Positions 7,716 to 41,250 are shown, counted from the stretch's first letter. The stretch is DNA of 64,000 nt from an uncultured Gammaproteobacteria bacterium (GCA_964654485.1 CAZZJI010000007.1:3276-67275); one strand, 5' to 3'. The notes: generated by a model from the sequence alone, not told the origin. Numbers and translations: made by a program.

Positions 7716-8318
7716 ATGATTTCAATGAAGATTTCACAACGCTATATATTATTTATAGTATCGATTACAACAATTATTGTGTTGTCCGGGTGTGTGTCGC
7801 CGATCCCATTACACAATGTCCAGTACACGGGCGCCGTAAATGTAACGAGTTCGAAAACTGCAAAAGTTCAGCTTGCTTCTAGTGAGGGTCGTACTGACAT
7901 ATCAGAGGGTGAAATTAATCCCCCCATCTCGACTGGTCCCGACCCCTATCTACGCTTCCATATTAGAAACCAACGCGCTTTCCTGGTGGCCTTACGCAAG
8001 GAACTTGTTCGCTTGAGCGTATTCAAATCAGCTGTGGGTGGAAATTCTTCCAAGCCAGCGGATATTACGATTACTATCATTTTTACACAAACCCACCACG
8101 ATGTTGATGACCAGGTGTATACGCTTCATGTTACGATGGAACTTAGTGGTGGGACTCTACCTTTGCGTGAACAATATCGCGTGATTTCGTCGGTAAAAGA
8201 CAGCAGTTGGGAAAAATGGAATACTACCGCTTATCAAGGCAAGGAAAAGGCGGTTAAGCGTTTACTTGAAAAACTAATACCCGCTATTGAGGTATATCTT
8301 AATACGACCGATGAATAA
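7716..8318 (+). CDS. Hypothetical lipoprotein
   Basis: 200 aa. Starts 1 nt after the stop of the upstream ATPase gene. Signal peptide with lipobox IVLSGC. No recognisable family. Confidence 0.6.
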   Translation: MISMKISQRYILFIVSITTIIVLSGCVSPIPLHNVQYTGAVNVTSSKTAKVQLASSEGRTDISEGEINPPISTGPDPYLRFHIRNQRAFLVALRKELVRLSVFKSAVGGNSSKPADITITIIFTQTHHDVDDQVYTLHVTMELSGGTLPLREQYRVISSVKDSSWEKWNTTAYQGKEKAVKRLLEKLIPAIEVYLNTTDE

Positions 8319-18586: not shown

Positions 18587-18598
18587 GTTGGTTATAGT

Positions 18599-19813
18599 TC
18601 AATTTCGGAACCGGTGAGAGAATTTTCTGTGTAACCATTTTAAAATGAGAGGGGGTAATAACGTGGTAAGCGCAATTACAATAATCATAGCTGCATAAAT
18701 CTCATTGTTAAAAATACCACTTTCGCGACCTAATTCGGCAAATATTAATCCAATTTCGCCACGTGGAATCATGGAAACGCCGATGATGGTTCGTTCCAAC
18801 CAGTTTTTTTGCAAAAGAAAAGCACCAGCTAATTTTCCGATGACTGCAACGGTAAGCAGGCTTAGAGAAAATACCCAGATATAGGAGGAACTCCAGTCTA
18901 TTTCACGTAGATTGAGTGACAAGCCTACCATGACAAAAAATATTGGGGTAAATAAATAAATGATTGGGTACATTTGTGTTTCAATGCGCTGAGTAAATTC
19001 ATCATCAGAAAGTGAACGTATCGATGTACCTAAGGGAATAAAAAAACGTCTTGAAAGGGCTAAACCCGCCGCAAAACCACCTAATAGTTCGGGTGCGCCT
19101 ACAACATACGCAAGCCATGCAAATAGCAGTACCAGTGAGACAATAGTGGTCGGGATTAAACCGGGTATTTCACTCGCTGCGTCAAAACGCCGAATAACGA
19201 TTGACATTAATTTTGCAACAAAGGGTGCTATCAGAAAAAAGGCGATAATGAATACGAATACTTTGCCACTATTGGCCAGATTAATTCCGCCTCCAATGGA
19301 AAATTCATAAAGTAAAGCCAATAGGATGACACCGATAATGTCATCCAGCACCGCAGCGCCAAGTACGATTTGGCCAGATGCAGTATTTAGGCGTTTTAAA
19401 TCAGTGAGTACTCGTACCGTGATGCCGATGCTAGTTGCCGTTAACGTTCCACCCACAAAAAGTGATACAAGCAAAGACAATTCAAATAACCAGAATGCCA
19501 GGACAAAACCAAGAATTAGCGGTAGTACAAATCCTACGAAGGCGACGATAATAGATTGTGTACCCGAATGTATCAGTTTTTTAATATCGGATTTGATTCC
19601 GACTTCAAAAAGCAGCAAGATTATACCGATTTCAGCGAGTAACTTTAACGCTTCTACGGGTTCTATCCAGCCAAATAAGCTTGGCCCCAACACAACGCCA
19701 GCACAGAGTTCTCCCAACACCGATGGAACACGAAGTCGAGTAGCAAGTTCGGCAAATATGCGTGCTGTTAGTAGGATTATGAGTAGACTTAGAAAAAACT
19801 CATGTGTTTCCAC
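18599..19813 (-). CDS. Cation:proton antiporter (CPA2 / Kef-type membrane domain)
   Basis: 404 aa polytopic membrane protein with Na+/H+ exchanger family pattern. Convergent with the ATPase gene. Confidence 0.75.
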   Translation of the reverse strand: METHEFFLSLLIILLTARIFAELATRLRVPSVLGELCAGVVLGPSLFGWIEPVEALKLLAEIGIILLLFEVGIKSDIKKLIHSGTQSIIVAFVGFVLPLILGFVLAFWLFELSLLVSLFVGGTLTATSIGITVRVLTDLKRLNTASGQIVLGAAVLDDIIGVILLALLYEFSIGGGINLANSGKVFVFIIAFFLIAPFVAKLMSIVIRRFDAASEIPGLIPTTIVSLVLLFAWLAYVVGAPELLGGFAAGLALSRRFFIPLGTSIRSLSDDEFTQRIETQMYPIIYLFTPIFFVMVGLSLNLREIDWSSSYIWVFSLSLLTVAVIGKLAGAFLLQKNWLERTIIGVSMIPRGEIGLIFAELGRESGIFNNEIYAAMIIVIALTTLLPPLILKWLHRKFSHRFRN

Positions 19814-20211
19814 GATATTTTCTCCATCTTTCGTATTTCTTTCTATTTTAGATCACAAAATATGAAAACAATACCGCTATATTGGCATTCGTGAACTAAA
19901 ATAACTATTAATATCAATGGGATAGAAAATTATTGTAAGTTTAGCAAAATTCTGGCTGTGCTAACCGGACGTGCTATCACTGTGAAATTAATCTAACCGG
20001 ATCGTCGAGTAATTGCGATAAATATCACTTAAGCCCGACAGGCTCTTAGGGTGATGACGCAACTAACCATAAAATAGTATAAAAAAAAGACAAATCAGTT
20101 GCGTTTATATTGCCACATTTTTAAATCGCCAATTGTTGTTGCGATATGCTTTAATAAATTATTTATACCCATTAATAAAATCCTTATGAAAATGAATCTA
20201 AACCTAATCCT

Positions 20212-21027
20212 ATGAAACGGCACAAGAAAAATTATCATCATCGTTGTGGTTCAGACCAGTCTGCCATTGCGGGGCTAAGGGATTGGTATCGCAGCGAACT
20301 TGGACAACGTTTATTAGAACAAGAAAAAATGACACTGGAGCCTTTAATCGCGAGTTTGTTTGGCTATCATCTGTTGCAAGTCGGGGTAGTGACGGAAGAA
20401 AGCTTGTTGCATACATCGTTGATTCCGAATTGTATGATTTTAGATATCAACATTGGTTCGGTTAATTTAAGTACAGAAATGAAGGGCAAAGTGTTTAGTG
20501 GTTTACCTGATGCATTACCGGTCGCCTCGGATAGCCTCGATGTAATGTTACTTCCGCATGTGCTCGAATTTAGCCGCGACCCACATCAGGTATTGAGAGA
20601 AGTAGATCGTGTACTCATTCCCGAAGGCCACGTGGTAATATCCGGATTTAATCCCTGGAGTAGTTGGTTAATTTGGCGTTTACTGCTTGGTTGGCGAAAA
20701 CAGCCGCCGTGGTGTGGCCGATTTGTGAGTCTGGCGCGACTCAAGGATTGGTTGAGATTATTAGGATTTGATATTATATCTGTTCAGCATGTTTTTTATC
20801 GTCCACCCATTCAACATGAGGGAATAATGAATAAGCTTTCTTTTGTTGATTCCATTGGGGAAAAATTCTGGCCAATATACGGTGCGAGTTATACGTTGGT
20901 AGCGAAGAAGCGTGTATTTACTTTTACACCGATAAAACCGAGGTGGAAACCTCGACGTTTTGTCCCCGATCGTATTGTAGAACCTCAGAACCGCGGGAAT
21001 ATACCGTATTCACTTGACGGGTACTAG
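20212..21027 (+). CDS. Class I SAM-dependent methyltransferase (YafS-like, conserved neighbour of rnhA)
   Basis: 271 aa. Position directly upstream of rnhA-dnaQ as in many gammaproteobacteria. Methyltransferase-type [12 protein letters not shown]...[14 protein letters not shown]. Confidence 0.65.
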
Positions 21028-28633: not shown

Positions 28634-30265
28634 TTATATTTTGCATTTATAGGTCAGTTCTACCGTTCCGTCTTCGTAGACGGTTTCCAGTCTGACAGTA
28701 AACCCCCATAAACGTGCGATATGTTTGGTTACTTCTGCGACTGTTTCTGCCAATGGTCGGCGGTTATATTGGTAGTGCCTTAGAGTCAGTGAACGATCGC
28801 CTTTCATATTGACATCATAAACCTGAATATCGGGTTCGTTTTGTCCAAGATTATATTGTTCCGACAAGGTTTTTTTGATGTGATGGTAGCCTTCGTCGTT
28901 GTGAATAGATGATATTTCAAGTTCAGGTTTGGTATCATCATCCAGTAATGAAAAAAGTTTAAAGTCTCGTATGATTTTGGGAGATAAATATTGTGAAATA
29001 AAACTTTCGTCTTTAAAGTTTCTCATGGCAAAATCAAGTGATTCTACCCAGTCAGTATTTGCCAGATCGGGGAAATAATTCTTGTCCTCTTCGGTAGGAT
29101 TTTCACATATACGCCTTATGTCCTTCATCATGGAAAAACCAAGCGCATAGACATTTATGCCACTGTAGAAGCGACTGTCAAATGAAGGTTGGCTCACCAC
29201 ATTTGTGTGTGATTGCAAAAATTCAATCATAAAGCCGTCAGAAAGAAATCCTTCGTCGTATAGTTGATTGAGCAATGTGTAATGCCAGAATGTTGCCCAG
29301 CCCTCATTCATAACTTGGGTTTGTCTTTGTGGATAAAAATATTGGGCAATTTTACGCACTATACGAACGAGTTCTCTTTGCCATGGTTCAAGTAAGGGCG
29401 CATTTTTTTCTATAAAGTACAAAATATTTTCTTGAGGTTCATCTGGGAAGCGTAAATCAGTTGGTTCAGCATCGTCTGATTCTTTAGTCGGTATTGTGCG
29501 CCATAATTCATTTATCTGAGATTGCAGGTACTCCTCCCGTTCTTTTTGACGGAGCATTTCTTTTTGTATCGATAGATTAGGTGGTCGTTTGTAACGATCT
29601 ACACCGTAATTCATTAAGGCGTGGCAGGAATCCAGAATTTCCTCAACTTGTTTTTCACCATAACGTTCTTCACATTTGGCCACGTAGTTCTTCGCGAATA
29701 GAAAATAATCAATAATGGCGTCGGCATTTGTCCAGGTTTTGAATAAGTAATTATTTTTAAAAAAAGAATTATGACCATAAGCAGCATGTGCGATAACCAA
29801 TGCCTGCATCATCATGGTGTTTTCTTCCATGAGGTAGGTAATGCATGGGTCAGAGTTAATCACAATTTCGTAAGCCAGCCCCATTTGACCACGTCGGTAG
29901 CGTTGCTCGGTCGCGAGAAATTGTTTTCCGAACGACCAATGAGAATAGCCTAATGGCATACCCACAGATGCATAGGCATCCATCATTTGTTCTGCAGAAA
30001 TTATTTCAATTTGAATTGGATAAGTGTCTAACTTGAATTGAGAAGCAACGCGCTCAATTTCTTTATTGTATCTATCTATTAATTCGAAAGACCACTCTGA
30101 CGTATTAGAAATTATTTTCCCTCTCTTTTTAACAGCTGTCTTTTTGGAGGTTTGTTTGGTTACTTTGCCAGATGCCTTTTTCAATACATTGTTGGATTGT
30201 TGGCCCGCCCTTTTTTTAGACGGATTGACGGTTTTCCTGTTATCTGTATCAGTTTTAGAATTCAT
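28634..30265 (-). CDS. ycgB: SpoVR-family protein (YcgB-like) with Lys-rich N-terminal extension
   Basis: 543 aa. Third gene of the prkA-yeaH-spoVR arrangement; 4-nt overlap with the upstream gene. Confidence 0.85.
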
Positions 30266-31521
30266 GACGGTTGTTTTTTAAAAAGCTCTCTAAATACGGG
30301 ATAAATTTCAGAAATATTTTCAATACGCTGCATCGCGAAATTTTCACATGCCATTTTCACATTTAGATATTCACGCCACAGGTTTTGTGGATTATCATTT
30401 GATATTTCTATATAAGAATAATATTGTACACACGGTAATATTGAATTCGCCAACAAATCTCGACAAATTGGTGAGTCATCGTTCCAGTTGTCACCATCAG
30501 AGGCCTGTGCGGCGTATATATTCCATTCATCTGTTGGAAAGCGATCTTTAATAATTTCATGCATTAATTTTAGTGCACTGGATACAACGGTACCGCCGGT
30601 TTCTCTGGAATAGAAAAAATTTTCTTCGTCAACTTCTTTGGCAATTGTATGGTGAGAAATAAATACAATTTCTATCTTTTCGTATGTGCGTGTTAAAAAT
30701 AAATAAAGCAAGATAAAAAATCGTTTTGCGATATCTTTTTTCATTTGGTCCATTGAACCCGATATATCCATCAAACAAAACATAACAGCGTGTGTTGATG
30801 GTCGTGGTAGTTTTATTCGGTTGTTATATCTTAGGTCAAACGGGTCGATAAAGGGAATCGCAGCTATTTTTTTCTTTAGCGATTCTATTTCTTTCTTCAA
30901 TTCAAAAACTTTAGGGCGGTATTCATCAGTGACTAGCAATAGTGCAGACAATGCCTGTTCTGCTTCTTTTAATTGTCTTTTGTATGGGTTCTGTAGGGCG
31001 ATGCGTCTGGACAGCGCGCCCCGCAAAGAGCGAACAATATTAATATTTGAAGGTATACCATCTGAGCTGTGTCCCGCGCGCACGCTCTTAAATTCTTTAA
31101 TGGTCGTCAGTTTGGTTTTCACCAAATTGGGGAGCGCGAGGTCTTCAAAAAAGAATTCCAAAAACTCTTCTTTAGAGAGTTGGAATACAAAATCATCCAG
31201 ACCTTCACCGCTGTTACTCGCTTTATTTCCTTTGCCACCACCTTGTGGCGGACGGGGGATTTTATCGCCGGTAGAAAATTCTTTATTTCCAGGTAAAATA
31301 TTATCTCGACGCCCCCCCGGTCCGTGACGAAAAGTGGGTTCGGAAATATCTTTGGCAGGAATGGTAACGGATTCACCTTTCTCAACATCTGTGATGCTGC
31401 GGCCCGCGATGGCATCTGTAACGGCCCTTTTAATATTGGATTTAAAGCGCTTTAGAAATTTACGGCGGTTTACCGCGCTTTTATTTTTGCCGTTAAGCCG
31501 TCTGTCGAGTATTTGTGCCAC
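30262..31521 (-). CDS. yeaH: YeaH/YhbH-family protein (DUF444, vWA-like)
   Basis: 419 aa. N-terminus [25 protein letters not shown] closely resembles remembered E. coli YeaH. Confidence 0.9.
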
Positions 31522-31531
31522 ATCATCGCCT

Positions 31532-33454
31532 TTAAGATGATTTTCTGACTCGTAAGTACCACTCGCAAAGCAATCGGACTTGTTTTTGTGTGTAGCCTTT
31601 TTCGGTCATGCGATCGACAAAATCTTCATGTTTCTTCTGTTCATCCCCCGAGCTTTTTGCATTAAACGAGATAACCGGGAGTAAGTCTTCGGTATTTGAA
31701 AACATTTTCTTTTCAATAACCGTGCGAAGTTTTTCGTAACTTGACCATTGTGGATTTTTACCGTCATTCTGCGCACGTGCGCGTAGTACAAAATTGACTA
31801 TTTCATTTCGAAAATCCTTGGGATTGCTTATGCCCGCCGGTTTTTCTATTTTTTCCAATTCGTCATTAAGGGCTGCCCGGCTAAATATTTCACCGGTATC
31901 AGTGTCACGATAATCTTCATCCTGAATCCAGTAATCTGCATAGGTAACATATCGATCAAAGATATTCTGACCATATTCTGAATACGATTCCAGATAGGCT
32001 TTCTGAATTTCTTTGCCAATAAATTCTATATACCGTGGTGTTATAAATCCTTTGATATAGGACAGGTAACGCTCTTCAATTTCTGCTGGAAATTGCTCGC
32101 GTTCAATTTGCTGTTCCAGTACATAAAGCAGATGCACTGGGTTGGCCGCAATTTCACTGTTATCGAAGTTAAATACTTTGGATAGAATTTTAAACGCAAA
32201 TCGGGTGGATAACCCCGTCATGCCTTCATCAACGCCAGCATAATCCCGGTATTCCTGGTAGGATTTTGCATTTGGATCTGTGTCTTTCAGGTTTTCGCCG
32301 TCATATACACGCATTTTCGAAAAGATATTGGAATTTTCTGGCTCTTTCAAACGTGAAAGTGCGGCAAACTGGGCCATCATTTTAAGCGTGCCGGGTGCAC
32401 ATGGCGCGTTGGCAAGAGAACTGTTTTCAAGCAATTTGTTATAAATATTTACTTCTTCCGAACAACGAAGGCAATAGGGCACCTTAACGATATAGATACG
32501 ATCAAGGAAGGCCTCATTATTTTTATTGTTCCTGAACGATATCCATTCTGATTCATTTGAATGTGCCAGGATTAGTCCCTCGAAAGGAATCGCTGCCAAA
32601 CCTTCAGTGCCTTTGTAATTATTTTCCTGTGTTGCCGTCAGCAGCGGGTGAAGTACTTTAATGGGCGCCTTGAACATTTCAACAAATTCGAGCATGCCAC
32701 GGTTTGCCTGGCATAGACCACCGGAGAAACTGTATGCATCTGGATCATCCTGGGAAAAGTTTTCCAGCATGCGAATATCGACTTTACCGACAAGTGAGGA
32801 AATATCCTGATTGTTTTCATCACCTGGTTCCGTTTTCGAAATACCTATTTGTTCCAATACAGAAGGCCGTATTTTTACAACTTTAAATTTAGTGATATCA
32901 CCATTAAATTCGTGTAAGCGTTTTACCGCCCATGGCGACATGATGGTGTTGATGTAGCGTTTGGGTATACCGAAATCTTCTTCCAGAATCTGGGCATCTT
33001 CTTCAGGAGAGAAGAGTCCGAGTGGTGATTCGTTGATAGGAGAGCCTTTAATGGCATAAAAGGGCATTTTTTCCAGTAAAGACTTAAGTTTCTCCGCCAA
33101 TGATGATTTACCACCACCAACCGGGCCGAGTAAATACAATATCTGTTTTCTTTCTTCCAGCCCCTGGGCCGCATGTCTGAAAAAAGAAACGATTTGCTCG
33201 ATGACCTCTTCCATGCCATAGAAGTCTTTAAACGCTGGATAGATTTTTATGACTTTATTTGAAAAGAGTCTGCTTAGCCGCGGGTCGGTTTTCGTATCGA
33301 TCAGTTCAGGCGTGCCGATTGCCTCTAGCATGCGCTCTGCAGCAGTGGCATAGGCGATCGGATCTTTTTTGCATATATTCAAATATTCCTGGAGGCTAAG
33401 CTCCTCTTCCTTCGACTCTTCGTAGCGGGATGTAAAATGAGTAAATATAGACAT
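31532..33454 (-). CDS. yeaG: PrkA-family serine protein kinase (YeaG)
   Basis: N-terminus [25 protein letters not shown] resembles E. coli YeaG. Walker [14 protein letters not shown] at 33454 is better spaced from gaagagg than the ATG at 33460. Confidence 0.9.
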
Positions 33455-33926
33455 GGTCATCGCCTCTTCGTCGTGGATAGTTCATTAAATATGAGTGAAC
33501 TATGAATTAGTGAATTATCCTTACTTCTTATATCGGCCTTATTCACTGTTTCTTTGCAGCACTTGATTACTTAGGTTTTAATCACTGTTTAGCCTCTTTT
33601 GAAACAAGACTCTGCAAAAAATGAGCCAACTAAACAAAATATATAACTGCGTAAGTAAAGTGCGTCTCCGTTGATAATAAAACCTTGAATTATTGATTAA
33701 TTAACGTTTTTGCAAAAATGGCCTCCGTCATCATGCGGATAACTGGATCGTTCCTATTTGACAAATTATCCTAAAAAATAAACACTTGTGTCATTAACAT
33801 GACAGATAACTCTATCGTTAGTTATACCCTTTCTTCTAAGTTACGACTAGGAAACAGGTCAATAGTTTGAATTTATTTTTAGTTTGTTTGAGTTGCTTTA
33901 TATAGAATTAAGTCGAGTCTGACCTC

Positions 33927-33956
33927 GTACACCGTCAAGGCTTTTTGACGGTGTAC
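33927..33956. repeat. REP-like palindromic element, copy 4 (inverted orientation relative to copies 1-3)
   Basis: gtacaccgtcaa - ggcttt - ttgacggtgtac. Loop is the reverse complement of the aa(t)agcc loops of the other copies. Confidence 0.8.
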
Positions 33957-34260
33957 TAATATTTGACCTGACGGTATAAAAATGTTGTGAGATACGCACA
34001 ATAAATTCAATCGCTGCAATAATTGCTCACATAATGACCAGTCAGAATGATGATATCGTAAGTCAGTATTTGCAATCGATATTAACTAAACTATCGCTAC
34101 CAACTCGACGCCACTAAAAACAGCTTCGGACTCGAAATAAGGTTATCAATATAGAAAGTATAACAGTTATTTTATGTAGGACACTGAGACGGATTGCTAC
34201 GCTCGGAACTTAAGATAGATTAAAGGTATTGTTAAAGAGCCGTTATCAGGATCAGCGTTA

Positions 34261-34299
34261 ATTATTGTTGGCTAATTCAAGACATTAGCCAACAATAAT
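34261..34299. other. Perfect 16-bp inverted repeat hairpin just downstream of the DUF3135-like gene
   Basis: attattgttggctaat - tcaagac - attagccaacaataat. No U-tract on either strand. Confidence 0.6.
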
Positions 34300-34356
34300 T
34301 CAGGACACAGTATTGTTAATAGCGAACTGCCTTTTTCACTTTTCGCTATTGTATCT

Positions 34357-34746
34357 CTAATGCTTAAATTTATTTTTATTAAAATAAATTATTTGCGCTG
34401 TTGCATGTTGCATTGGTTTTGATATTGGTACAGCGTTCAGTTTCGGTTCCACCAGTAATTTTACCGTGGAAACCAAGCCATTATCGCCGGTGACCGCATC
34501 CCACATCATTGATGATAATTTAATGCAGGCACCCAATGGAGTACGTGCTTTTTTTCGCTCCATATCAATGCGAAATTGTAAGCCTCGTAATCGTCTTTGT
34601 TTGGAAATAGGAATACGCTCGAAAAATTGCTCAATGTAATTCTGACGGCGTTGTTCAAATCCTTCTGGATCATTACTGGCCAGATTAGCCCATTCATCGA
34701 AATCAATTCGAGTGCTTTTTTTGAAATTTTGTTTAATATTTGACAT
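34357..34746 (-). CDS. DUF3135-like small protein
   Basis: 129 aa. FDEWANLASNDPEGFEQRRQNYIEQF...RLRGLQFRIDMERKKARTPLGACIKLSSMMWD matches my memory of DUF3135 proteins. Confidence 0.6.
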   Translation of the reverse strand: MSNIKQNFKKSTRIDFDEWANLASNDPEGFEQRRQNYIEQFFERIPISKQRRLRGLQFRIDMERKKARTPLGACIKLSSMMWDAVTGDNGLVSTVKLLVEPKLNAVPISKPMQHATAQIIYFNKNKFKH

Positions 34747-35083
34747 CTGAAACTACCTTATTTTGCTGCGAGAACATTGTACAACATGATCAATGGTTCA
34801 CTCACGGGACACCGATGACTCTATATAACCGCGTAAATATAACGGTTATTGTTTGTGTCCAGCACTTAGTTAAATTTTACCTGTAACGTGCCGGTTAGGC
34901 TATGAAACGGCTAATATTTATCTATATAAGAACACGCTGAAAAGCACTGAATAATTTATTTTGATTTTTATAACATAATAAAAACAAATAGATAGAAATG
35001 CGAGCAGTATCAAGTAAAAGTCGGGGGTTCGGGCTGTATTGCCTAAATGTTGTATTTTTGCGGTAGAAATGTGATGTGCCATA

Positions 35084-35127
35084 TGGCGACCCGGAGACGA
35101 TTCGAACGTCCGATGTGGCTTAGCAGG
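35084..35127 (-). pseudogene. Orphan tRNA 3' half (T arm, acceptor 3' strand, CCA) plus 10-nt anticodon-loop core
   Basis: Minus strand reads ...CCTGCTAAGC CACATC GGACG TTCGAAT CGTCT CCGGGTC G CCA. Canonical T loop and encoded CCA, but no matching 5' half within 100 nt. Confidence 0.65.
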
Positions 35128-35419
35128 GGGTGTTTTTTAAAAAAATTAGATTTCCATGACCAAGTAAAGATAAAAATACGGGCCTCATATACGTGTAGGC
35201 AAGGACCGGTTGCGGTCAATGCTTTCGGCTTTACTTGCTGTCTCGCAGGCTTTGATCTCTGCTGATGCGTCAGAAATCTTTCTGCCTTCAATATTCGGTA
35301 AAAACTAGCCTCTGAGGCGATATAGCGTCGTTCATCCTTGTGTCGGAGAAATTATGAAACTAACTACATTAATATATTGCGCTCCATCCAGGCTACGTTA
35401 GTTTTATAATATGTCTCGC

Positions 35420-35779
35420 TTATCTGTTGGTAATTAATTTTGGTTGGCTGAGTTGAAATACACCATTGTGTGCGCCGCCAATATATTCAGCACATACATT
35501 AAGGCATTCACCCACGTGAAAATTCTTAAGAGATTCAAAACAAAATCCCTCGGCAACTTTACCTACAGACGCAAATTGTGGTCCAAAGACTGGATTGATA
35601 CTTAATACTTCAAACTTGACCAGCCATTTGCGCTCATCATCGGGAGTCTGTGAACATTCCAACAGCCGGATTTCCAATTGTGACTCATTGGGTGCAACAG
35701 AAACTGAACCAAATCGTGGTGGTACTGGCCGTGGTGGTACTGGCATGGTGGAAACCTCGTGACAAAACGTATAGGACAA
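35420..35779 (-). CDS. Hypothetical protein (119 aa from TTG; 108 aa if ATG at 35746 is used)
   Basis: Open frame downstream of the protease gene, with Pro-rich N-terminus PVPPRPVPPRFG. No family recognised. Confidence 0.45.
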   Translation of the reverse strand: MSYTFCHEVSTMPVPPRPVPPRFGSVSVAPNESQLEIRLLECSQTPDDERKWLVKFEVLSINPVFGPQFASVGKVAEGFCFESLKNFHVGECLNVCAEYIGGAHNGVFQLSQPKLITNR

Positions 35780-35781
35780 CT

Positions 35782-35818
35782 AACTGCTCGGCATCAAATA
35801 GGGCAATGCCGAGCAGTT
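35782..35818 (-). terminator. Strong stem-loop (13-bp perfect arms) between protease gene and downstream ORF
   Basis: aactgctcggcat - caaatagggca - atgccgagcagtt. Lies 22 nt after the protease stop. The following minus-strand sequence is only moderately T-rich. Confidence 0.45.
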
Positions 35819-35839
35819 GATAGACCAGTATAAACTACA

Positions 35840-37405
35840 TTAGCCAAGATATACACGATATAGCGTATCGTTGTCGACATAAACAGTCACTAAATTGTTA
35901 TTTGCCCGTGCCTCACATAAGGCAGTAAAGGCATTGGTAACGCCATCAGGGTTTCCTGTTTTTATTTTTCGCCACCCTAGCCCCTGAATGTTTGCCCAAG
36001 CATTTTGAGAATGGTAACTAGTGTAGAGACGATTAACAATTTTGTTTGTATGCCACTCCTTAACCGCTGCTCCACCGACGTTAATATTGGCCGTTATATT
36101 TTCTCCCACGCGAGTAATCGCGGAAACATTGACTTCGGAGCCAGTACCATCATACGCGTTGCTGTTGGGCGTGGTCGTAGAATTAAAAGCGTTATTTCCA
36201 TTGAAAGGAAAAGTATCTCCACTGTCTCCGGAATTCGCATTACTGTTCAAGTCTCGCTTGCCATCAGCTTGTTCGATATCTACGAGGTAATGCGCTTCGT
36301 CTGTGTTATTTGATTGATTGTCATCAACATGTTCGATAATACAGCCCTCTCCTGGTAGATAAGAATCAAAACCCAGTTTTTGTCGATTCGCTACCAAAAA
36401 ATACTCTTTTGAATCTGCGCTGCCAATCGGCAATTTATAAACATCACCATTATTGAAATAAGGTTTAATATTTACACTTTGCGCACTATTGAATACCGTC
36501 GTTGAGGAAATCCAACCGGCTTTCAGTTTACACCAGGCAGACGGATGCGCTGGTGTGTGACCGTTGTTGTTCCAGCTGCCTCCGGCCATCAAATCCCATC
36601 GACCGGTACCACGTGATGAATAATCGGTGTCATACAGATCTGGCCAGCTCATTAATAAATGGCCTAGTTCATGTGACATAACACCTACCCGACCATCTTC
36701 CGGCGCCATGAAATAGCTACGTATTTGCACGCCGTTTACCGTCTTCGGCGTAATCGACCACTTGTGCGACCAAAAATCGCTTTTGTCACCCGTCGCTTCA
36801 GCGCCAGAACCAGCGGGAATGATAATCAATGCGTCTACTACACCATCACCATCATTATCGTATTGCGCAAAGTTAATATGAGGAGCAGCAAGATCAATGA
36901 CATCCTCTACCAGTTTCTGAGCGTTACGCGGGTAGTCTGCGAAACCGTAATCTTCATTGGTATAATATGATTTGGGTTGCGGTGCCCGATACCAGCCTAC
37001 AGTGACACCGCCGCTTCCGCCAACTTCGCCAACAATATCCAATTTACCGTATGAGGCTTCCCGGTAAAAGTCGTTCATGCTTCCACCAGCATAAGTTCCG
37101 CTGGAAAAGAGCATATCTCTAAAGTGTGACTGCGTTTGTGTTCCCGCCTTGTCTGAAAAATCCACCAGCAGAACCAAGGCCCTACGTGTGCCGACGATAG
37201 GGCTTAAACCCTTAGTGGGTGAGATCAGGGTATGAGCCCGAGTTTTAGGTGGACGCATCAAGATTTTCGTTGCACTTTCTCGATCGAGAACTTCGTCATC
37301 TGCTTTTTCAGGAAGTTCAAGACCAATACGTAGGCGGTGTTTTGAACGGATAATTTTCTCCTCCAATTCTGGTGAAGGAGGTGCGATACAAAGATTGTTG
37401 GACAT
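35840..37405 (-). CDS. M6-type (immune inhibitor A-like) zinc metalloprotease domain protein with novel ~70-aa C-terminal domain; no signal peptide
   Basis: 521 aa. Good RBS (agagga). HExxH as MSHELGHLL. Surrounding pattern (LVLLVDFSD..., DFYREASYG, DGDGVVDALIIIPAG, FWSHKW, GRWDLMAGGSWN) matches my memory of M6 family domains. Hydrophilic N-terminus MSNNLCIAPPSPELEEK. Confidence 0.75.
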   Translation of the reverse strand: MSNNLCIAPPSPELEEKIIRSKHRLRIGLELPEKADDEVLDRESATKILMRPPKTRAHTLISPTKGLSPIVGTRRALVLLVDFSDKAGTQTQSHFRDMLFSSGTYAGGSMNDFYREASYGKLDIVGEVGGSGGVTVGWYRAPQPKSYYTNEDYGFADYPRNAQKLVEDVIDLAAPHINFAQYDNDGDGVVDALIIIPAGSGAEATGDKSDFWSHKWSITPKTVNGVQIRSYFMAPEDGRVGVMSHELGHLLMSWPDLYDTDYSSRGTGRWDLMAGGSWNNNGHTPAHPSAWCKLKAGWISSTTVFNSAQSVNIKPYFNNGDVYKLPIGSADSKEYFLVANRQKLGFDSYLPGEGCIIEHVDDNQSNNTDEAHYLVDIEQADGKRDLNSNANSGDSGDTFPFNGNNAFNSTTTPNSNAYDGTGSEVNVSAITRVGENITANINVGGAAVKEWHTNKIVNRLYTSYHSQNAWANIQGLGWRKIKTGNPDGVTNAFTALCEARANNNLVTVYVDNDTLYRVYLG

Positions 37406-37488
37406 GGTTTTTTCCTCTTTTTATTGTTAGATTCGATACAAAATTCCTTGCTCTATAGGCGAAGATTCAGTTCCATTTTTGTCTTCGT

Positions 37489-37797
37489 TCAAGCGACCTC
37501 ATGAACATGGATTACCATTTTCTCAATGGATTGCGCCATGGGTACCCGGTACGCTTGCATACTAAGTAAATCACCAAGCTCTATTTTCGGATGACCAGAC
37601 AGGCTCACATGGGCACGAATGATGTAGTCCGATGCGGGATCGCGGACAACGAAGTCTATCGAAAACGATACCGATGTTTTCATGCCAGCTTGGTGGAACA
37701 CATGGTTAATTCGCAAACTAGTTAACTTTATTGAAGATCCATCCAGCATGCCAACGTCTTCCGCGTAAACATACAAAACCGCATCCGCCTGTCGCAA
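37489..37797 (-). CDS. Hypothetical 102-aa protein (weak motif-level resemblance to YbaY/YscW-type beta-sandwich domains)
   Basis: TTG start 3 nt after the upstream stop, suggesting translational coupling. DAVLYVYAEDVGMLDGSSIKL and YIIRAHVSLSG...GDLL patterns. Confidence 0.45.
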   Translation of the reverse strand: MRQADAVLYVYAEDVGMLDGSSIKLTSLRINHVFHQAGMKTSVSFSIDFVVRDPASDYIIRAHVSLSGHPKIELGDLLSMQAYRVPMAQSIEKMVIHVHEVA

Positions 37798-37800
37798 TGC

Positions 37801-38241
37801 TTACTTTTTAGTACTGCTTCGCGAGCTTGCTTTCTTAGTCGTTGGCTTTACCTCTGATTTATCTTCTAAATCAGGCGGCGGTGGTGCATCTTGCGACTGC
37901 GTTTCATCCAAACCAGGTGCCGGTACTACTATGCTACCTATGCTACCGTTCTTGATACTATGGAAAGATTCGTCGGAGAGTGGCCCAGGTGCGCTATCCA
38001 AGTTTGCTAGCGTATCTGCATTCTGCGTAACTTCTTCAGGACCTGGCGCCCCAGAAAAAGCGGCGCTTTCAGTGGCAGCCGACGACTGACCAGCCTCGGG
38101 ACCCGGTGCCGCATTAACGTCCATCTGTATACCAGAAAATGCCAAGTTATGCGGTGCGGGGGCTTCGGCCAAGTCAGCACTTGAAGTATTTTTTAAGAAC
38201 TCCCCGCCCATGGGAATTTTAATCGTGATTTCCGGGATCAT
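37801..38241 (-). CDS. Hypothetical low-complexity protein with four APGP/APGL-acidic repeats and Lys/Ser-rich tail
   Basis: 146 aa. Repeats AAPGPEAGQ, GAPGPEEVTQ, SAPGPLSDES, VPAPGLDETQ. C-terminus KPTTKKASSRSSTKK. Confidence 0.5.
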   Translation of the reverse strand: MIPEITIKIPMGGEFLKNTSSADLAEAPAPHNLAFSGIQMDVNAAPGPEAGQSSAATESAAFSGAPGPEEVTQNADTLANLDSAPGPLSDESFHSIKNGSIGSIVVPAPGLDETQSQDAPPPPDLEDKSEVKPTTKKASSRSSTKK

Positions 38242-38274
38242 TTTTCATTCTCCTATAATTTATTTGATGGAACA

Positions 38275-38300
38275 CAATGGCTGCAGTACTGCAGCCATTG
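38275..38300. other. Perfect 26-nt palindrome (stem-loop) between the 72-aa gene and the 146-aa gene
   Basis: caatggctgcagt|actgcagccattg. Contains two ctgcag sites. Confidence 0.6.
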
Positions 38301-38316
38301 ACAGCCGACATACATC

Positions 38317-38535
38317 TCAATTCATATACGCACGTTCAATAAGATTCTCGACAATATAGACACTAACGGTACGATTATTGGCTTTAGCAACGCTCAGCAA
38401 AGTAAAAGTATTGGTGACGCCATCACTGTTATCAGTTTTTATTTTTCTCCATCCAAGACCATCTATCCGCGCCCAACCATTTTGTGAATGAAAAGTTGTA
38501 TAAGTTTGAAGAACGGCTTTATTATTATTCCACAT
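38317..38535 (-). CDS. Free-standing copy of the protease C-terminal domain (72 aa)
   Basis: ATG at 38535 preceded by aagagga. MWNNNKAVLQTYTTFHSQNGWARIDGLGWRKIKTDNSDGVTNTFTLLSVAKANNRTVSVYIV... aligns along its whole length with the last ~72 aa of the 521-aa protease. Confidence 0.7.
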   Translation of the reverse strand: MWNNNKAVLQTYTTFHSQNGWARIDGLGWRKIKTDNSDGVTNTFTLLSVAKANNRTVSVYIVENLIERAYMN

Positions 38536-38657
38536 GATAGTTTCCTCTTTTTTGTTGTTGTAAAAATTTTTTTTCATCAAGATTCGAAGGCAATCCAAAC
38601 TACGACGCTTGCTTTTACTAAAATTATTTATTTTTTATTAAATTATAACGTCTTAAT

Positions 38658-38948
38658 CTAACTTATAAATTTAATTTTATTATTTAAATAGACCCGATAA
38701 ATGCTGCTACCATTTGCAAACACATTGATGGTTCGGTTATTTGCCTTTGCCTCGCATAAAACAACAAAGGTATTGGTAACGCCATCAGAATTACCGATAT
38801 TAATTTTTATCCAACCCAAACCTTGAATTAACGCCCAGGCATTTTGCGAGTGATAAGTCGAATAAACTCGGCCAACGGTATTGTGCGCCGCTGACTGCAA
38901 CGCCCATTTCAAGGTCGTCTTGTGTTGCATCAATATCATCGCCTGCAA
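38658..38948 (-). CDS. Second free-standing (or frameshift-fused) copy of the protease C-terminal domain
   Basis: ...KWALQSAAHNTVGRVYSTYHSQNAWALIQGLGWIKINIGNSDGVTNTFVVLCEAKANNRTINVF...IYRVYL. Weak start signals. The 5' 149 nt overlaps ORF 38800..39147 in another frame. Confidence 0.55.
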   Translation of the reverse strand: MQAMILMQHKTTLKWALQSAAHNTVGRVYSTYHSQNAWALIQGLGWIKINIGNSDGVTNTFVVLCEAKANNRTINVFANGSSIYRVYLNNKIKFIS

Positions 38949-39147
38949 GCTTAGCCTGGGTGCGGCTCTTCATCTCTTCTGCGGTACCCAGTACGATATC
39001 GCCTTCGAACAAAGCAAGTCCATCAACAACTGTGTATTGTACTGGCTTATTTTTAAATGTAAGGCCAGAAACGAAACCGGTAAAAATTTCGTCGCCGGAT
39101 TGAAACTCAGTACTTTCGCTTTCGCTTTCGGTATCTTGGTTCGCCAT
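38800..39147 (-). CDS. Hypothetical acidic N-terminal ORF; its 3' third is the out-of-frame shadow of 38658..38948 (possible frameshifted fusion)
   Basis: MANQDTESESESTEF...PVQYTVVDGLALFEGDIVLGTAEEM. Its last ~45 aa are read from the same nucleotides as the conserved domain in the other frame. Confidence 0.4.
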   Translation of the reverse strand: MANQDTESESESTEFQSGDEIFTGFVSGLTFKNKPVQYTVVDGLALFEGDIVLGTAEEMKSRTQAKLAGDDIDATQDDLEMGVAVSGAQYRWPSLFDLSLAKCLGVNSRFGLDKN

Positions 39148-39459
39148 AGGTTTGTTAGTATTATTATTAATTCCTTCTGCTCACCAAAGCTGAGTGAAAT
39201 CTATTCTTGCAATCGCGTCTATTTTTCACAGTGATAAATTACCCCGGTACTTGTGAAATATTTACTTTGTGATTAAATATTATTCTAATGACTTAAGTTA
39301 AAAACGGTATTTCGAAGTCGATCCCGGAGTGGGTCCCATAGTCAAGACAGTAATCCAAAAATATATGTTGTGACACAGTTTGGGTACAACTGAAGGCATG
39401 GAGGTGAAATTGGGTTGTTGTACTACGTTACGCGGGTATGAGTTATTTCAAAAGAGAAA

Positions 39460-39536
39460 TGGCCCGCTCGAATGGATTCGAACCATCGGCCTGCCCCTTA
39501 GGAGGGGGCTGCTCTATCCAGCTGAGCTACGAGCGG
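39460..39536 (-). tRNA. tRNA-Arg (anticodon CCT)
   Basis: 77 nt cloverleaf folded by hand. Acceptor CCGCTCG/CGAGCGG. D arm GCTC-AGCTGGATA-GAGC (A20 present). Anticodon arm GCCCC-CTCCTAA-GGGGC. Variable AGGCC. T arm GATGG-TTCGAAT-CCATT. Discriminator G, encoded CCA. Confidence 0.85.
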
Positions 39537-39595
39537 TTTGGGGTATTATACAGGATTTGACTGTTAACTTAAGTGCGTTTCCCTAATGATTGTTA

Positions 39596-39636
39596 GCTTA
39601 GGAGGCGACTGCTCTATCCGACTGTGCTACCGGGGC
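39596..39636 (-). pseudogene. Orphan tRNA-Arg(CCT)-like 5' half (acceptor 5' strand, D arm, anticodon stem 5' strand and loop)
   Basis: Minus strand reads GCCCCGG TA GCAC AGTCGGATA GAGC A GTCGC CTCCTAA GC, then diverges (taacaatc) with no anticodon-stem partner or T arm. Confidence 0.65.
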
Positions 39637-39690
39637 AACAAACGTGTATTGAATAATCTTGTTGTTACACTAAAATAAATATCGAGTGAT

Positions 39691-39987
39691 TTATGAGTAT
39701 TCATCTGTTTTTCCCCTTTTCCATTTTATATACTGAAGATCTTCATGATGGCCAGAAAATTCAATCCATTCAAATAGAAACCCTTTTAAGCCGCCGAACC
39801 AATCGGGTCGGTAAGCAACGACCTTGTAGGTGATGCAACCTGTCCCCTGGATTTTTCGATTTGTGTGATCTGTTAAAATAACGCTATAAGCTATTGATAT
39901 ATTGATAAAATATGTATGTGACTGGTCATTCACAGACGTATATTTAGAGATTAGAAACCACGTTGGCGTACCTAAAAACGCGGCCAA
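39691..39987 (-). CDS. Hypothetical ORF (98 aa, TTG start), doubtful
   Basis: Only an open frame. No ATG, no clear RBS, no recognised motifs. Confidence 0.2.
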   Translation of the reverse strand: MAAFLGTPTWFLISKYTSVNDQSHTYFINISIAYSVILTDHTNRKIQGTGCITYKVVAYRPDWFGGLKGFLFEWIEFSGHHEDLQYIKWKRGKTDEYS

Positions 39988-40263
39988 TGTTAATCGTGTT
40001 GTAATAAAACTTTGTCCCAGTCGTCTTTAGTTATTCTAGTTAAGGAACCAGTTAAGTAATCGTATTAAGTAATGGGATATTAGTCACCGGACTAAGAAGA
40101 TCGCATATTATAGCCTAATAAAAAAGAGTATAAATCGAAATATCCCGTGTTGATTAAATAATAGTGCTAGTATTAGCCGGTTTTTGCGGTGATAGATGTA
40201 AATCTTCAGATAAAAAAATGCCTATACAAACGAAATATAAACAGGTTGTCGGGGTTTTAACAA

Positions 40264-41250
40264 ATGCATGCAACATTACCGTTATTAGAAACAACAAATT
40301 TTCCATTGATAAAAAGATCCAGACTCGAAACACTGCAAGTAAATCTGGGTTACAAGTGCAACCAACAGTGTTTACATTGTCACGTTAACGCCAGCCCCCA
40401 ACGAAAAGAGGTGATGGATAAGGAGACTGTTGACACCGTTATCGCTTTTTTGGAATCAACCAACGTAAACTCAAATGCAAACTCAGGCGTAAAGAAGCTG
40501 GACCTCACTGGCGGTGCGCCTGAACTTAATCCGTACTTTCGCAAATTGGTACGTCACGCTCGTCAATTGGGAATTCATGTGATAGACAGGTGTAATCTCA
40601 CAATACTTGAAGAACCCGGTTTTGAAGATTTAGCAGAATTTTTGGCTGAGCAGCAGGTTGAGGTCATCGCATCATTACCATGCTATTTAGAAGATAACGT
40701 AAACAAGCAACGTGGTAGCGGTGTTTTTGGTACCAGTATTAGCGGGTTGCGGAAATTAAATAAATTAGGTTATGGAAAACCAGGCACAGGTTTAGAACTC
40801 AACCTGGTTTACAATCCGCAGGGGCCGGTACTGCCGCCAGCACAAGTGATGCTTGAACAAGACTATAAAGAAAATCTTGGGGAGCGGTTTTCGGTTGTTT
40901 TTAATAATTTATTCACACTTGCCAATATGCCCATTAAACGATTCGGCAGTACGTTAATCTCTAAAGGCCAATTTGAAGACTATATGTTACTTTTACGTGG
41001 CTCTCATAATACTGAAAATTTACGCTCTGTAATGTGCAAAATATTGATAAGTGTTGATTGGCGGGGATATGTGTATGACTGTGATTTTAACCAGATGTTA
41101 GGTTTACCATTGGGTGCAACAAAGAAACCAAGTATACATATAAAAGATTTAACCACAGTTGATCTCGAAGGTGGCTCTATATGTGTAAAAGACCATTGTT
41201 ATGGTTGTACCGCGGGGCAGGGAAGTAGCTGTGGTGGTGCTCTCGCATAA
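40264..41250 (+). CDS. arsS: Radical SAM/Cys-rich-domain protein of the ArsS (arsenosugar biosynthesis radical SAM) family
   Basis: 328 aa. CNQQCLHC radical SAM motif near the N-terminus. C-terminal Cys-rich tail CVKDHCYGCTAGQGSSCGG. Followed by a DUF2064-type gene, as I recall for this family. Confidence 0.75.
   Translation: MHATLPLLETTNFPLIKRSRLETLQVNLGYKCNQQCLHCHVNASPQRKEVMDKETVDTVIAFLESTNVNSNANSGVKKLDLTGGAPELNPYFRKLVRHARQLGIHVIDRCNLTILEEPGFEDLAEFLAEQQVEVIASLPCYLEDNVNKQRGSGVFGTSISGLRKLNKLGYGKPGTGLELNLVYNPQGPVLPPAQVMLEQDYKENLGERFSVVFNNLFTLANMPIKRFGSTLISKGQFEDYMLLLRGSHNTENLRSVMCKILISVDWRGYVYDCDFNQMLGLPLGATKKPSIHIKDLTTVDLEGGSICVKDHCYGCTAGQGSSCGGALA

Follow-up and report, generated by a model that had tools for sequence, protein, structure and literature searches.

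A gene cluster on the minus strand of an uncultured Gammaproteobacteria bacterium (positions 35420-39147 of the window, i.e. the complete 64,000-nt stretch that was analysed) is one instance of a sparsely distributed five- to six-gene module that probably owes its spread to horizontal transfer. The invariant core of the module consists of one or two signal-less pro-proteases with a shared C-terminal domain (CTD), a free-standing CTD and a disordered protein with PxP motifs. The variable part is one small beta-rich protein per protease, matched to its class (famA for astacin, famB for M6, I42 for papain). As best overall explanation, we propose with a probability of roughly 0.5 a horizontally spread module in which class-matched inhibitors and CTD-based assembly or sorting would yield a latent protease complex. 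Testable roles are assigned to four families of hypothetical small proteins, and the question arises which function zymogen-type digestive proteases without a signal have within cells of so diverse lineages.

Gene content and setting of the cluster

Features of the cluster are listed in Table 1. The M6 arm is intact and comprises the M6 protease, the free CTD, the disordered protein (famD) and famB. The astacin arm is dead, having lost its catalytic core to a deletion, and its famA partner is truncated. All intact cluster genes are under purifying selection, with dN/dS values of 0.06 for the M6 protease (relative to L012, the closest relative), 0.12 for the free CTD gene (relative to its nearest relative) and 0.17 for famD. 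By inspection, a hydrophobic N-terminal signal was absent from every cluster protein, in agreement with a preliminary description of this DNA.

Table 1. Features of the cluster and of the adjoining tRNA region (positions in the window)
Feature	Position	Strand	Basis or remark
famB, M6-linked partner, 119-aa ORF	35420-35779	-	likely start ATG 35746, giving 108 aa
M6 (InhA-like) metalloprotease, 521 aa, HELGH, no signal peptide	35840-37405	-	TIGR03296, PF05547
CTD of M6 protease, predicted OB-fold	residues ~451-520, nt ~35843-36055	-	CTD HMM, E 2.8e-30
famA member, YscW-like beta protein, astacin-linked, 102 aa	37489-37797	-	alignment
famD, acidic Pro-rich disordered protein, 146 aa	37801-38241	-	sequence
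Perfect hairpin, 12-bp stem, no U-tract, just after free-CTD stop codon	38275-38300	-	
Free-standing CTD paralogue, 72 aa, sole truly free copy	38317-38535	-	good RBS; aagaggaaactatcATG
3' stump of astacin gene, CTD copy, frame unlike 5' stump	38658-38867	-	CTD HMM, E 2.5e-29
5' stump of astacin (M12A) gene, pro-segment up to ...GAQYRWP	38870-39147	-	L012 alignment
tRNA-Arg(CCT), beside cluster	39460-39536	-	ARAGORN; Rfam 63.8 bits
tRNA-like fragment, 34 nt, 85% identity to part of tRNA-Arg(CCT)	39597-39630		repeat family D2

The 521-aa protein was assigned to peptidase family M6, as proposed earlier. It matched the catalytic-domain models TIGR03296 (E 2.3e-69; 234 bits, cut-off 110.8) and PF05547 (E 1.8e-24; 86.9 bits, cut-off 22) and carries the HExxH zinc motif as HELGH. 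None of the T9SS C-terminal sorting domain models in Pfam and NCBIfam matched its CTD, and the only T9SS-named match of the protein (NF052323) lies in the catalytic domain (residues 254-343). Assignment of the CTD as a T9SS sorting domain was rejected on this account, as well as for the missing Sec signal and the predicted fold, an OB-fold with a helix and not an Ig-like sandwich.

GC content of the cluster is 0.44-0.49, versus 0.34-0.42 in its flanks. The tRNA-Arg(CCT) gene and the tRNA-like fragment are both located on one side of the cluster, and a search for an att-like repeat at the opposite end within the window yielded none; the initial description as a tRNA-bracketed insert was therefore abandoned.

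The disrupted astacin gene

The ORFs between 38658 and 39147 are an astacin pseudogene. The two ends of the intact astacin gene of L012 align to window positions 39099-38870 and 38867-38683, with 80% nucleotide identity for the 5' stump (L012 807-1033) and 77% for the 3' stump (L012 1605-1789). The 571 bp in between (L012 1034-1604), encoding the catalytic domain with HExxH, are replaced in the window by 2 bp (38868-38869). Since the ends of this deletion are out of frame, the resulting ORFs of 115 and 96 aa represent two stumps of one dead gene. In the 115-aa ORF (38800-39147), reading continues out of frame beyond the 5' stump to position 38800. The N-terminus of this stump matched LegP (NF045530, E 2.5e-5), and the stump could be aligned to the intact 341-aa astacin of Nitrosomonas marina. 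The 96-aa ORF (38658-38948), taken initially for a free-standing third copy of the CTD, is identified by the L012 alignment as the 3' stump. No match to the Pfam astacin model was obtained in these ORFs, and a functional M12A astacin was rejected, as only the pro-segment and the CTD are left and the catalytic domain is missing.

The C-terminal domain family

The domain, approximately 70 aa long, is present three times, at the C-terminus of the M6 protease, as the 72-aa ORF and in the 96-aa ORF. The copies share 54-57% amino acid identity with 31 invariant columns, close to the half of positions previously estimated by eye, and 65-71% DNA identity over 149 nt (repeat family D1). They matched the CTD family HMM with E values of 3e-30, 4e-37 and 3e-29, respectively. 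Triplication was thus confirmed, but not the proposed arrangement of one fused and two free copies: one copy is free and two are protease-borne, one of them in the pseudogene. The free protein starts with MWNNNKAVLQ and, like 80 homologues, lacks a hydrophobic leader by inspection.

No Pfam family reached its threshold with the CTD, consistent with the earlier failure to recognize the domain. The sole match, DUF7862 (PF25262), scored 14.2-14.9 bits versus a gathering cut-off of 27, for which reason this assignment was rejected; even a weak match was found in only 6 of 80 family members. The CTD is an uncurated domain family without a Pfam model, with ~349 cluster representatives among 1.84 billion proteins. 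AlphaFold predicted a compact OB-fold (pLDDT 96), closest to the B subunits of AB5 toxins and the inclusion protein CipA. The helix is the most conserved segment.

Free and fused CTDs show fixed positional differences, the free orthologues being distinct from the fused copies. Of 31 fused copies, 28 have Cys at column 48; most free copies have Ser or Asn there. CTD pairs within one locus were more similar to each other than pairs formed by shuffling (0 of 10,000 permutations), a test in which independence is overstated, the loci being few and partly close relatives. Gene conversion could be an alternative source of this excess similarity.

Distribution of the module

At ~25 distinct loci, genes are arranged in the order protease-CTD, free CTD, disordered protein. 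Hosts include alpha-, beta- and gammaproteobacteria, Acidobacteria, Balneolaceae, an unclassified high-GC metagenome contig and an archaeal MAG. In every retrieved locus with a visible neighbour, the free ~72-aa gene adjoins a CTD-ended protease or lies one gene away. Proteases with a fused CTD belong to at least five catalytic families unrelated to each other (M6, M12A astacin, M10, C1 papain and S8 subtilase), which makes the domain a common C-terminal handle that is always accompanied by a free paralogue. The position was C-terminal in every fused protein examined, except for P0241 (N-terminal), which looks like a frameshift read-through. Pro-segments are represented by the cysteine switch PRCG in M10, and the N-terminal regions of the astacin and S8 proteins look like pro-segments.

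A free CTD comes next after the fused gene in the S8 and M10 versions as well as in the unknown-domain version. Where the sequence is readable, most loci have famD 3' of the free CTD, among them the C1 locus (HMM), the S8 locus (by eye) and the locus with an unknown N-terminal domain (HMM); at this position the M10 locus is unreadable. Window famD has an N-terminal beta-strand motif (MIPEITIKIP), a Lys-rich tail and a net charge of -10. Its six PxP motifs lie at residues 28, 46, 66, 85, 107 and 120. PxP spacing in the family is 18-22 residues; of the 12 proteins examined, 5 contain six motifs and one contains twelve. An acidic disordered protein is thus encoded beside a basic free CTD.

Small partner proteins

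Presence of the small partners follows the protease class. famA was found in 16 of 17 assessable astacin loci (L032 being the one without detectable famA) and in no M6-only or C1 locus, and famB in 15 of 15 M6 loci and in no astacin-only or C1 locus; as loci are few and partly close relatives, these counts overstate independence. The papain (C1) locus carries a genuine chagasin (Inhibitor_I42). Because they track protease class, the 102-aa and 119-aa proteins make stronger candidates for inhibitors or immunity proteins, and their families are candidate new metalloprotease-inhibitor families, one for astacin and one for M6. Neither window famA nor window famB could be placed clearly in a known inhibitor family; for famB, I42 chagasin, TIMP/NTR and potempins were considered. 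A natural famB-famA fusion exists (P0281).

The preliminary description of the 119-, 102- and 146-aa partners as unrecognized needs qualification for the 102-aa protein. At the family level, YscW (PF09619) was matched by 8 of 14 famA members (best E 1.6e-9); the window copy gave no match. The famA family profile also matched PDB 5wec, named 'Lipoprotein' (E 1.6e-8). Relatives of YscW are lipoproteins of the pilotin type and are not known as inhibitors, and a lipobox was found neither in window famA nor in any aligned homologue. Window famA lacks ~13-23 N-terminal residues of its homologues and starts with TTG, four bases past the preceding stop, without an RBS; because of these three features, it is probably decaying. 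famB is composed of a disordered Pro-rich N-terminus and an invariant A-P-N motif, followed by a predicted five-stranded all-beta OB barrel.

Proposed mechanism and alternative explanations

In the proposed mechanism, the class-matched small proteins would act as cognate tight-binding inhibitors, by which the proteases are kept silent inside the producer. The CTD would serve as an assembly or sorting module independent of protease class, joining proteases, free subunits and the repeat protein. Free CTD subunits may form oligomers in the manner of AB5-toxin B subunits or CipA, into which protease-borne CTDs would be taken up, and the multivalent PxP protein would tie CTD subunits together. The outcome would be a latent protease complex, stored and released later. 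If this assembly model is true, the OB domain and the PxP protein would form a natural scaffold for enzymes, with uses in biotechnology similar to those of CipA. Clearly less likely is a novel type of cytoplasmic protease particle or condensate, consisting of an AB5-B/CipA-like ring or lattice of free OB domains, interchangeable protease cargo and a PxP crosslinker, with inhibitors acting until release by lysis or injection. If this reading is true, the particle would offer portable, self-assembling protease storage and delivery, usable in bacteria and archaea.

Rather unlikely is a role of the CTD as export or packaging signal for an eCIS, T6SS or lysis/vesicle route, with free CTD and famD as adaptor, chaperone or plug and the partners as immunity proteins. 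Proteases of extracellular type with pro-segments but no Sec signal would be explained by it, as would the Marinobacter cluster abutting an eCIS operon (sheath, gp19 tube, baseplate, Pvc16) and the T6SS genes TssK, TssL and TssM ~3 kb from the cluster at L031; moreover, the shared C-terminal domain of the KLIKK peptidases is a T9SS secretion signal (PMC9890683). However, a contractile system is near only 2 of ~27 loci, and the remaining neighbourhoods have nothing in common. Occurrence of the module in an archaeal MAG and a high-GC contig argues against one envelope-specific machine, and a mere signal would do without a conserved free paralogue that has fixed differences of its own. A toxin-antitoxin-like or abortive-infection system, in which CTD and famD sense infection or stress and release cytoplasmic protease toxins from labile inhibitors, is quite improbable. 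No cluster protein (0 of 8) matched a PADLOC-DB 2.0 defence model, even at E ≤ 1, Pfam annotation of the genes around module loci revealed no defence genes, and nucleotide-sensing, NTPase or other signalling domains are absent; broad-specificity digestive proteases with zymogen pro-segments would also be unusual effectors. These points stand against several that fit defence: every component lacks a signal and is cytoplasmic; different effector classes are mounted on one unchanging core, a pattern shared with many defence systems; the window shows decay of one arm; and sporadic distribution, raised GC and an adjoining tRNA or relaxase (Coralliovum) are typical of mobile islands.

Free-standing homologues of protease pro-domains are known inhibitors (I9 and I29 type). 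This, together with the constant co-encoding of free and fused copies, speaks for direct modulation of the protease by the free CTD, in the role of a decoy, competitor, inhibitor or immunity protein that binds the catalytic domain or competes for the target of the fused CTD. We nevertheless consider such a role highly improbable. An active-site-directed inhibitor is unlikely because a CTD fused to at least five unrelated catalytic folds cannot complement the active site, and separate class-matched partners exist, the genuine chagasin included. The low dN/dS of the free copy and its distinct orthologues fit a structural subunit better than a decoy. Of the protease/modulator arrangement suggested initially, the conserved pairing of protease and free accessory domain was retained, and the free domain as inhibitor, immunity protein or decoy was not. 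Competition of the free CTD for a common ligand is possible. The suggested targeting tag is viable and is preferred here, as is an assembly module.

Comparison with known systems

By analogy, the closest known counterpart of the module is the KLIKK-peptidase/potempin system of Tannerella forsythia, in which one C-terminal domain is common to peptidases of disparate classes and every peptidase is co-transcribed with its own specific inhibitor of 98-132 aa with an OB or beta-barrel fold (PMC9890683). Three potempins are five-stranded OB barrels, as in the famB model. In contrast to the module, KLIKK peptidases have Sec signals and a T9SS sorting domain, potempins are outer-membrane lipoproteins, and KLIKK genes are reported only in pathogenic T. 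forsythia strains (PMC9890683). The module is cross-phylum and signal-less, its CTD is a predicted OB-fold with a helix and no Pfam match, and its free CTD gene and periodic disordered protein have no KLIKK counterpart. No sequence homology between the module and the KLIKK/potempin system was detected.

AB5 B subunits (LT-IIb, pertussis S5, SubB, PltB, Stx2B, CTB) likewise are small OB proteins encoded beside an enzyme gene, and one module variant pairs the OB gene with an S8 subtilase, as in SubAB. The modelled CTD has the OB-fold with central helix of these subunits; the likeness is at fold level only (4-14% identity), and OB-folds are widespread among proteins. Sequence searches of Pfam and PDB gave no match with E < 0.8, and membership of a known B-subunit family was rejected. 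Unlike AB5 toxins, which have Sec signals and assemble in the periplasm, the module has no leader (by inspection) and no A2 linker, and its enzyme is covalently fused to one OB copy. CipA of Photorhabdus (PDB 7xhs) oligomerizes via its helix and the b1/b5 edge strands (PMC9530169). Enzymes fused to CipA are recruited into its assembly. CipA shows no sequence similarity to the CTD and has no link to proteases, a disordered partner or inhibitors.

Operons of chagasin (I42) with C1 proteases and of emfourin with protealysin (PMC9505478) also combine a signal-less protease with a small cognate inhibitor, and the C1 variant of the module has a real I42 gene. These operons differ in having no shared CTD, free paralogue or repeat protein, and window famA and famB have no clear place in known inhibitor families. 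The pairing of famD (PxP every ~20 residues) with the CTD resembles, by analogy and not by homology, sticker-and-spacer scaffolds. In such scaffolds (CsoS2, CcmM, EPYC1), a disordered protein bearing short motifs at even intervals is combined with an oligomeric partner.

Hairpin downstream of the free CTD gene

The hairpin at 38275-38300 has a predicted RNA folding energy of -22.6 kcal/mol (z -2.7). It possibly represents an mRNA processing or stability element setting gene dosage. At the corresponding site after the free CTD, L006 and L004 also have strong hairpins, and in L012 the same hairpin as in the window is present with a compensatory A-U to U-A change.

Arrangement of the cluster

The open reading frames (ORFs) of the cluster are listed below. 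Assignment of the 521-aa protein to the M6 proteases is solid. The gene for the free-standing C-terminal domain (CTD) was taken as 72 aa and a 93-aa extension was considered unused, because all homologues begin at the same motif. The 5′ end of the gene for the 119-aa protein (family B) contains a perfect 15-bp tandem duplication (CGTGGTGGTACTGGC x2) at 35715-35744, giving a repeated PVPPR-PVPPR in the disordered N-terminus; relatives do not have the repeat.

Open reading frames of the cluster between 35420 and 39147, in order of transcription
Feature	Position	Strand	Remarks
115-aa ORF	38800-39147	-	First in transcription order
96-aa ORF	38658-38948	-	Different frame, overlaps the 115-aa ORF
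72-aa gene, free CTD	38317-38535	-	MW.NN start in all homologues
146-aa gene, family D	37801-38241	-	
102-aa ORF, family A	37489-37797	-	
521-aa M6 protease	35840-37405	-	TIGR03296 (E 2.3e-69), PF05547 (E 1.8e-24), HELGH motif
119-aa ORF, family B	35420-35779	-	Start probably the ATG at 35746 (108 aa)

Three copies of the domain and an astacin pseudogene

Alignment of the C-terminal ~70 residues of the M6 protease, the 72-aa protein and the 96-aa ORF gave 54-57% identity with 31 invariant columns, and the DNA of the copies was 65-71% identical across 149 nt. Given this identity at both levels, the threefold repeat noticed in the preliminary description is real and far beyond chance. Its count of two free copies was not borne out: one copy is free and two are protease-borne, one of them in a pseudogene, since the 115-aa and 96-aa ORFs are the stumps of a second, astacin-type protease gene.

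The 115-aa ORF matched the N-terminal part of LegP, an astacin-type effector. At the syntenic position, Nitrosomonas marina has a gene for an intact 341-aa astacin, of which the N-terminus resembles the 115-aa ORF and the C-terminus is a CTD copy. The closest relative, locus L012 of an uncultured gammaproteobacterium, has a free CTD 83% identical to that of the window. Window positions 39099-38870 aligned with L012 807-1033, and 38867-38683 with L012 1605-1789; the intervening 571 bp of L012, containing the entire catalytic domain including HExxH, correspond to 2 bp in the window, and the ends are out of frame. The same deleted structure was present in an independent metagenome assembly (L001), so an assembly error was discarded. 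For the stumps, a dN/dS of ~0.10 relative to L012 points to a recent deletion. The family A protein of the window lacks the N-terminal ~13-23 residues found in all homologues, its ribosome binding site is absent, and it appears to be decaying together with its astacin, as a cognate pair would. In L012, the astacin is intact and the family A partner (2647-2907) appears frameshifted or truncated, with 86 aa and an aberrant C-terminus; a sequencing error in the metagenome-assembled genome (MAG) or independent decay could explain this.

Distribution and conserved order of the module

A profile built from the three CTD copies retrieved 141 proteins, almost all of which were free-standing, with a length of 70-75 aa. 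Their sources were Coralliovum, Marinobacter, Halomonas, Nitrosomonas, Halioxenophilus and many metagenomes. When 1.84 billion representatives were scanned exhaustively with an HMM, only 349 matched at E ≤ 0.001. Among the fused proteins examined, all but P0241 had the CTD at their extreme C-terminus; P0241 looks like a frameshift read-through.

Genomes were scanned using a profile of 18 closer CTD sequences, and ~25 distinct loci, a small sample including near-duplicates, were retrieved and mapped with family HMMs. The free CTD adjoined a CTD-bearing protease, or was one gene away from it, in every locus with a visible neighbour, and was followed by the disordered family D protein in most loci with readable sequence. 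N. marina, Halomonas, L012 and L031 share a canonical order (astacin-CTD, free CTD, disordered protein, family A, M6-CTD and family B), and the genes of the window follow it exactly. Hosts included alpha-, beta- and gammaproteobacteria, Blastocatellia, Pyrinomonadaceae, Balneolaceae, a high-GC metagenome contig and a Methanotrichaceae MAG. Two free CTD genes are present in some loci (L025 9782-10495; L031 10001-10219 and 12955-13173); in L031, each protease has one free CTD after it.

Protease classes and their partners

When the longer family members were scanned against Pfam, M6, astacin (M12A), matrixin (M10), papain (C1) and subtilase (S8) were identified as CTD fusion partners. The M10 fusion has a pro-domain (PG_binding_1) and a cysteine switch (PRCG). 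No signal peptides were seen in the CTD-fused proteases, as judged by inspection. Family A was present in 16 of the 17 assessable astacin loci (exception, L032) and never in M6-only or C1 loci. Family B accompanied M6 in all 15 loci that could be assessed, and was absent from astacin-only and C1 loci. Inhibitor_I42 (chagasin), a genuine family of cysteine-protease inhibitors, is encoded in the C1 locus L008. The CTD is thus independent of catalytic class and the small partners match the class of the protease. A natural family B-family A fusion (P0281) and a C1 peptidase carrying two CTDs in tandem (P0161) were also encountered.

Two further proteins, P0189 (L030 1135-2241) and P0265, have a ~300-aa N-terminal domain fused to the CTD, followed by a free CTD and a family D protein. 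This domain had no match in Pfam, NCBIfam or PDB; judging by where it lies, it presumably represents a further class of hydrolase or protease. As no tool supported a clan-CD cysteine protease, guessed from a GHG...NSCQ motif, the pair was not included as a sixth class.

Properties of the small proteins

The AlphaFold model of the free CTD (pLDDT 96) has a classical OB topology, b1-b2-b3-helix-b4-b5, with likeness to the AB5 B subunit and to CipA; nucleic-acid-binding OB folds scored about 6 against it. CipA, an OB protein that self-assembles in the cytoplasm, most resembles the LT-IIb B subunit and oligomerizes via its helix and b1/b5 strands (PMC9530169). The domain, described earlier as unrecognised, indeed belongs to no Pfam family at threshold: searches of Pfam and NCBIfam gave only sub-threshold DUF7862 and CNP1, the former at 14.9 bits (cut-off 27) and as a weak match in only 6 of 80 family members. 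No match was found for the CTD and family B profiles among PDB sequences, and a Foldseek search of the CTD model against viral structures gave nothing below E 0.07. Family A is YscW-like (PF09619 in 8 of 14 members; PDB 5wec, E 1.6e-8). Since hhalign found no homology between CTD and family B or between families A and B, the three small-protein families were considered unrelated in sequence.

The free CTDs form a conserved group of their own, with a mean identity of 57% across loci versus 47-48% to the fused copies. At helix column 48, 28 of 31 fused CTDs have Cys and most free CTDs have Ser or Asn; at column 49, the fused form has Glu or Asp and the free form Ala, and the b4-b5 turn differs too. 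A metal "cysteine switch" role of the Cys in fused CTDs was rejected, as the M10, S8 and C1 fusions do not have it. CTDs of the same locus were 5-8 points more alike than shuffled pairs, a difference reached in 0 of 10,000 permutations, although the loci are not phylogenetically independent and this p-value is optimistic. The likeness would fit co-evolution of interacting subunits or gene conversion. Every intact gene is under purifying selection (dN/dS: M6, 0.06; free CTD, 0.12; family D, 0.17; family B, 0.30).

The acidic family D protein begins with an alternating-hydrophobic strand (e.g., MIPEITIKIP, MNPDVSIHIS or MEITIKITF) and usually ends in a Lys-rich tail. PxP motifs occur every 18-22 residues, often with an acidic residue after them; of 12 proteins, five (window, L012, L006, L010 and L026) have six motifs, that of Coralliovum has twelve, and the remaining six have 3-8. 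Net charge was -9 to -37 in 11 of the 12 examined; the L005 ORF (+11) looks mis-framed past residue ~70. Free CTDs are basic (mean charge +3), with a conserved GWRKIKTG loop. In multivalent scaffold proteins such as CsoS2 and EPYC1, evenly spaced short motifs are paired with an oligomeric partner. By analogy only, the layout of family D and the free CTD, itself probably an oligomer, resembles these.

Directly 3′ of the free-CTD stop codon, a stable hairpin without a U-tract is located at 38275-38300. Hairpins occur at the same site in L012 (~2135-2165), L006 (~3844-3900) and L004 (~8247-8290), with a compensatory A-U to U-A change between window and L012. The hairpin may control how much of the free subunit is made compared with the products of the genes downstream.

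Proposed function

We infer that the CTD would act as an assembly or sorting module, linking the proteases with the free subunits and with the PxP protein, because of its AB5-B/CipA-like fold, the obligatory free paralogue with its fixed differences and the periodic partner. The free domain is unlikely to be an inhibitor, immunity protein or decoy, as had been proposed; a targeting tag, proposed along with these, or an assembly tag is the preferred reading. Alternatively, the CTD could be a packaging signal for contractile injection systems. In Marinobacter sp. X15-166B, an eCIS operon (sheath, gp19 tube, baseplate and Pvc16; L005 11297-16219) adjoins the module, with a sigma-54 activator upstream, and in L031 the T6SS genes TssK, TssL and TssM (16729-20219) are ~3 kb away, but such neighbours were found in only 2 of ~27 loci and may be coincidence.

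Families A and B would be the cognate inhibitors of the proteases, as suggested by their co-variation with protease class, by chagasin in the C1 version and by the precedents of the potempins (PMC9890683) and emfourin/protealysin (PMC9505478). A further, less likely alternative is a toxin-antitoxin or abortive-infection module; a PADLOC scan of all eight cluster proteins gave no match. The nearest known system in logic is KLIKK/potempin of Tannerella forsythia, which similarly has proteases of multiple classes, a common C-terminal domain and co-transcribed small OB/beta-barrel inhibitors. In contrast, the module has no signal peptides, T9SS domain or lipoproteins, includes a free CTD gene and a periodic disordered protein, and is spread across phyla. 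Searches of the literature for DUF7862, 5WEC and AB5-like fused proteases yielded nothing on the domain or the cluster. Protease operons with cognate inhibitors and a common C-terminal domain are known; there is a real chance that the core of OB domain and PxP protein is new.

Genomic context

The insert had been described as tRNA-bracketed, which was not confirmed. The single tRNA near the cluster is Arg-CCT (39460-39536), also the only Rfam match in 33000-41000. An att-type direct repeat marking an integrated island was searched for and not found; there was only a tRNA fragment, on the same side as the tRNA and with no match at the far end of the cluster. This 34-nt fragment (39597-39630), ~60 nt upstream on the same strand, is 85% identical to part of tRNA-Arg(CCT) and seems to be what remains of a tRNA duplication or of an old integration. 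The module is suggested to be a mobile, self-contained unit, because neighbouring genes vary between loci, cluster GC is raised (0.44-0.49 versus 0.34-0.42 in the flanks) and a relaxase adjoins the module in Coralliovum.

Downstream of the cluster, the minus strand carries a PrkA (AAA_PrkA)-DUF444 operon and, after it, another large ORF (28634-33460), and a small DUF3135 gene (34357-34746; E 2.5e-26) is located between this operon and the cluster. In L012, a large 661-aa ORF directly follows the cluster.
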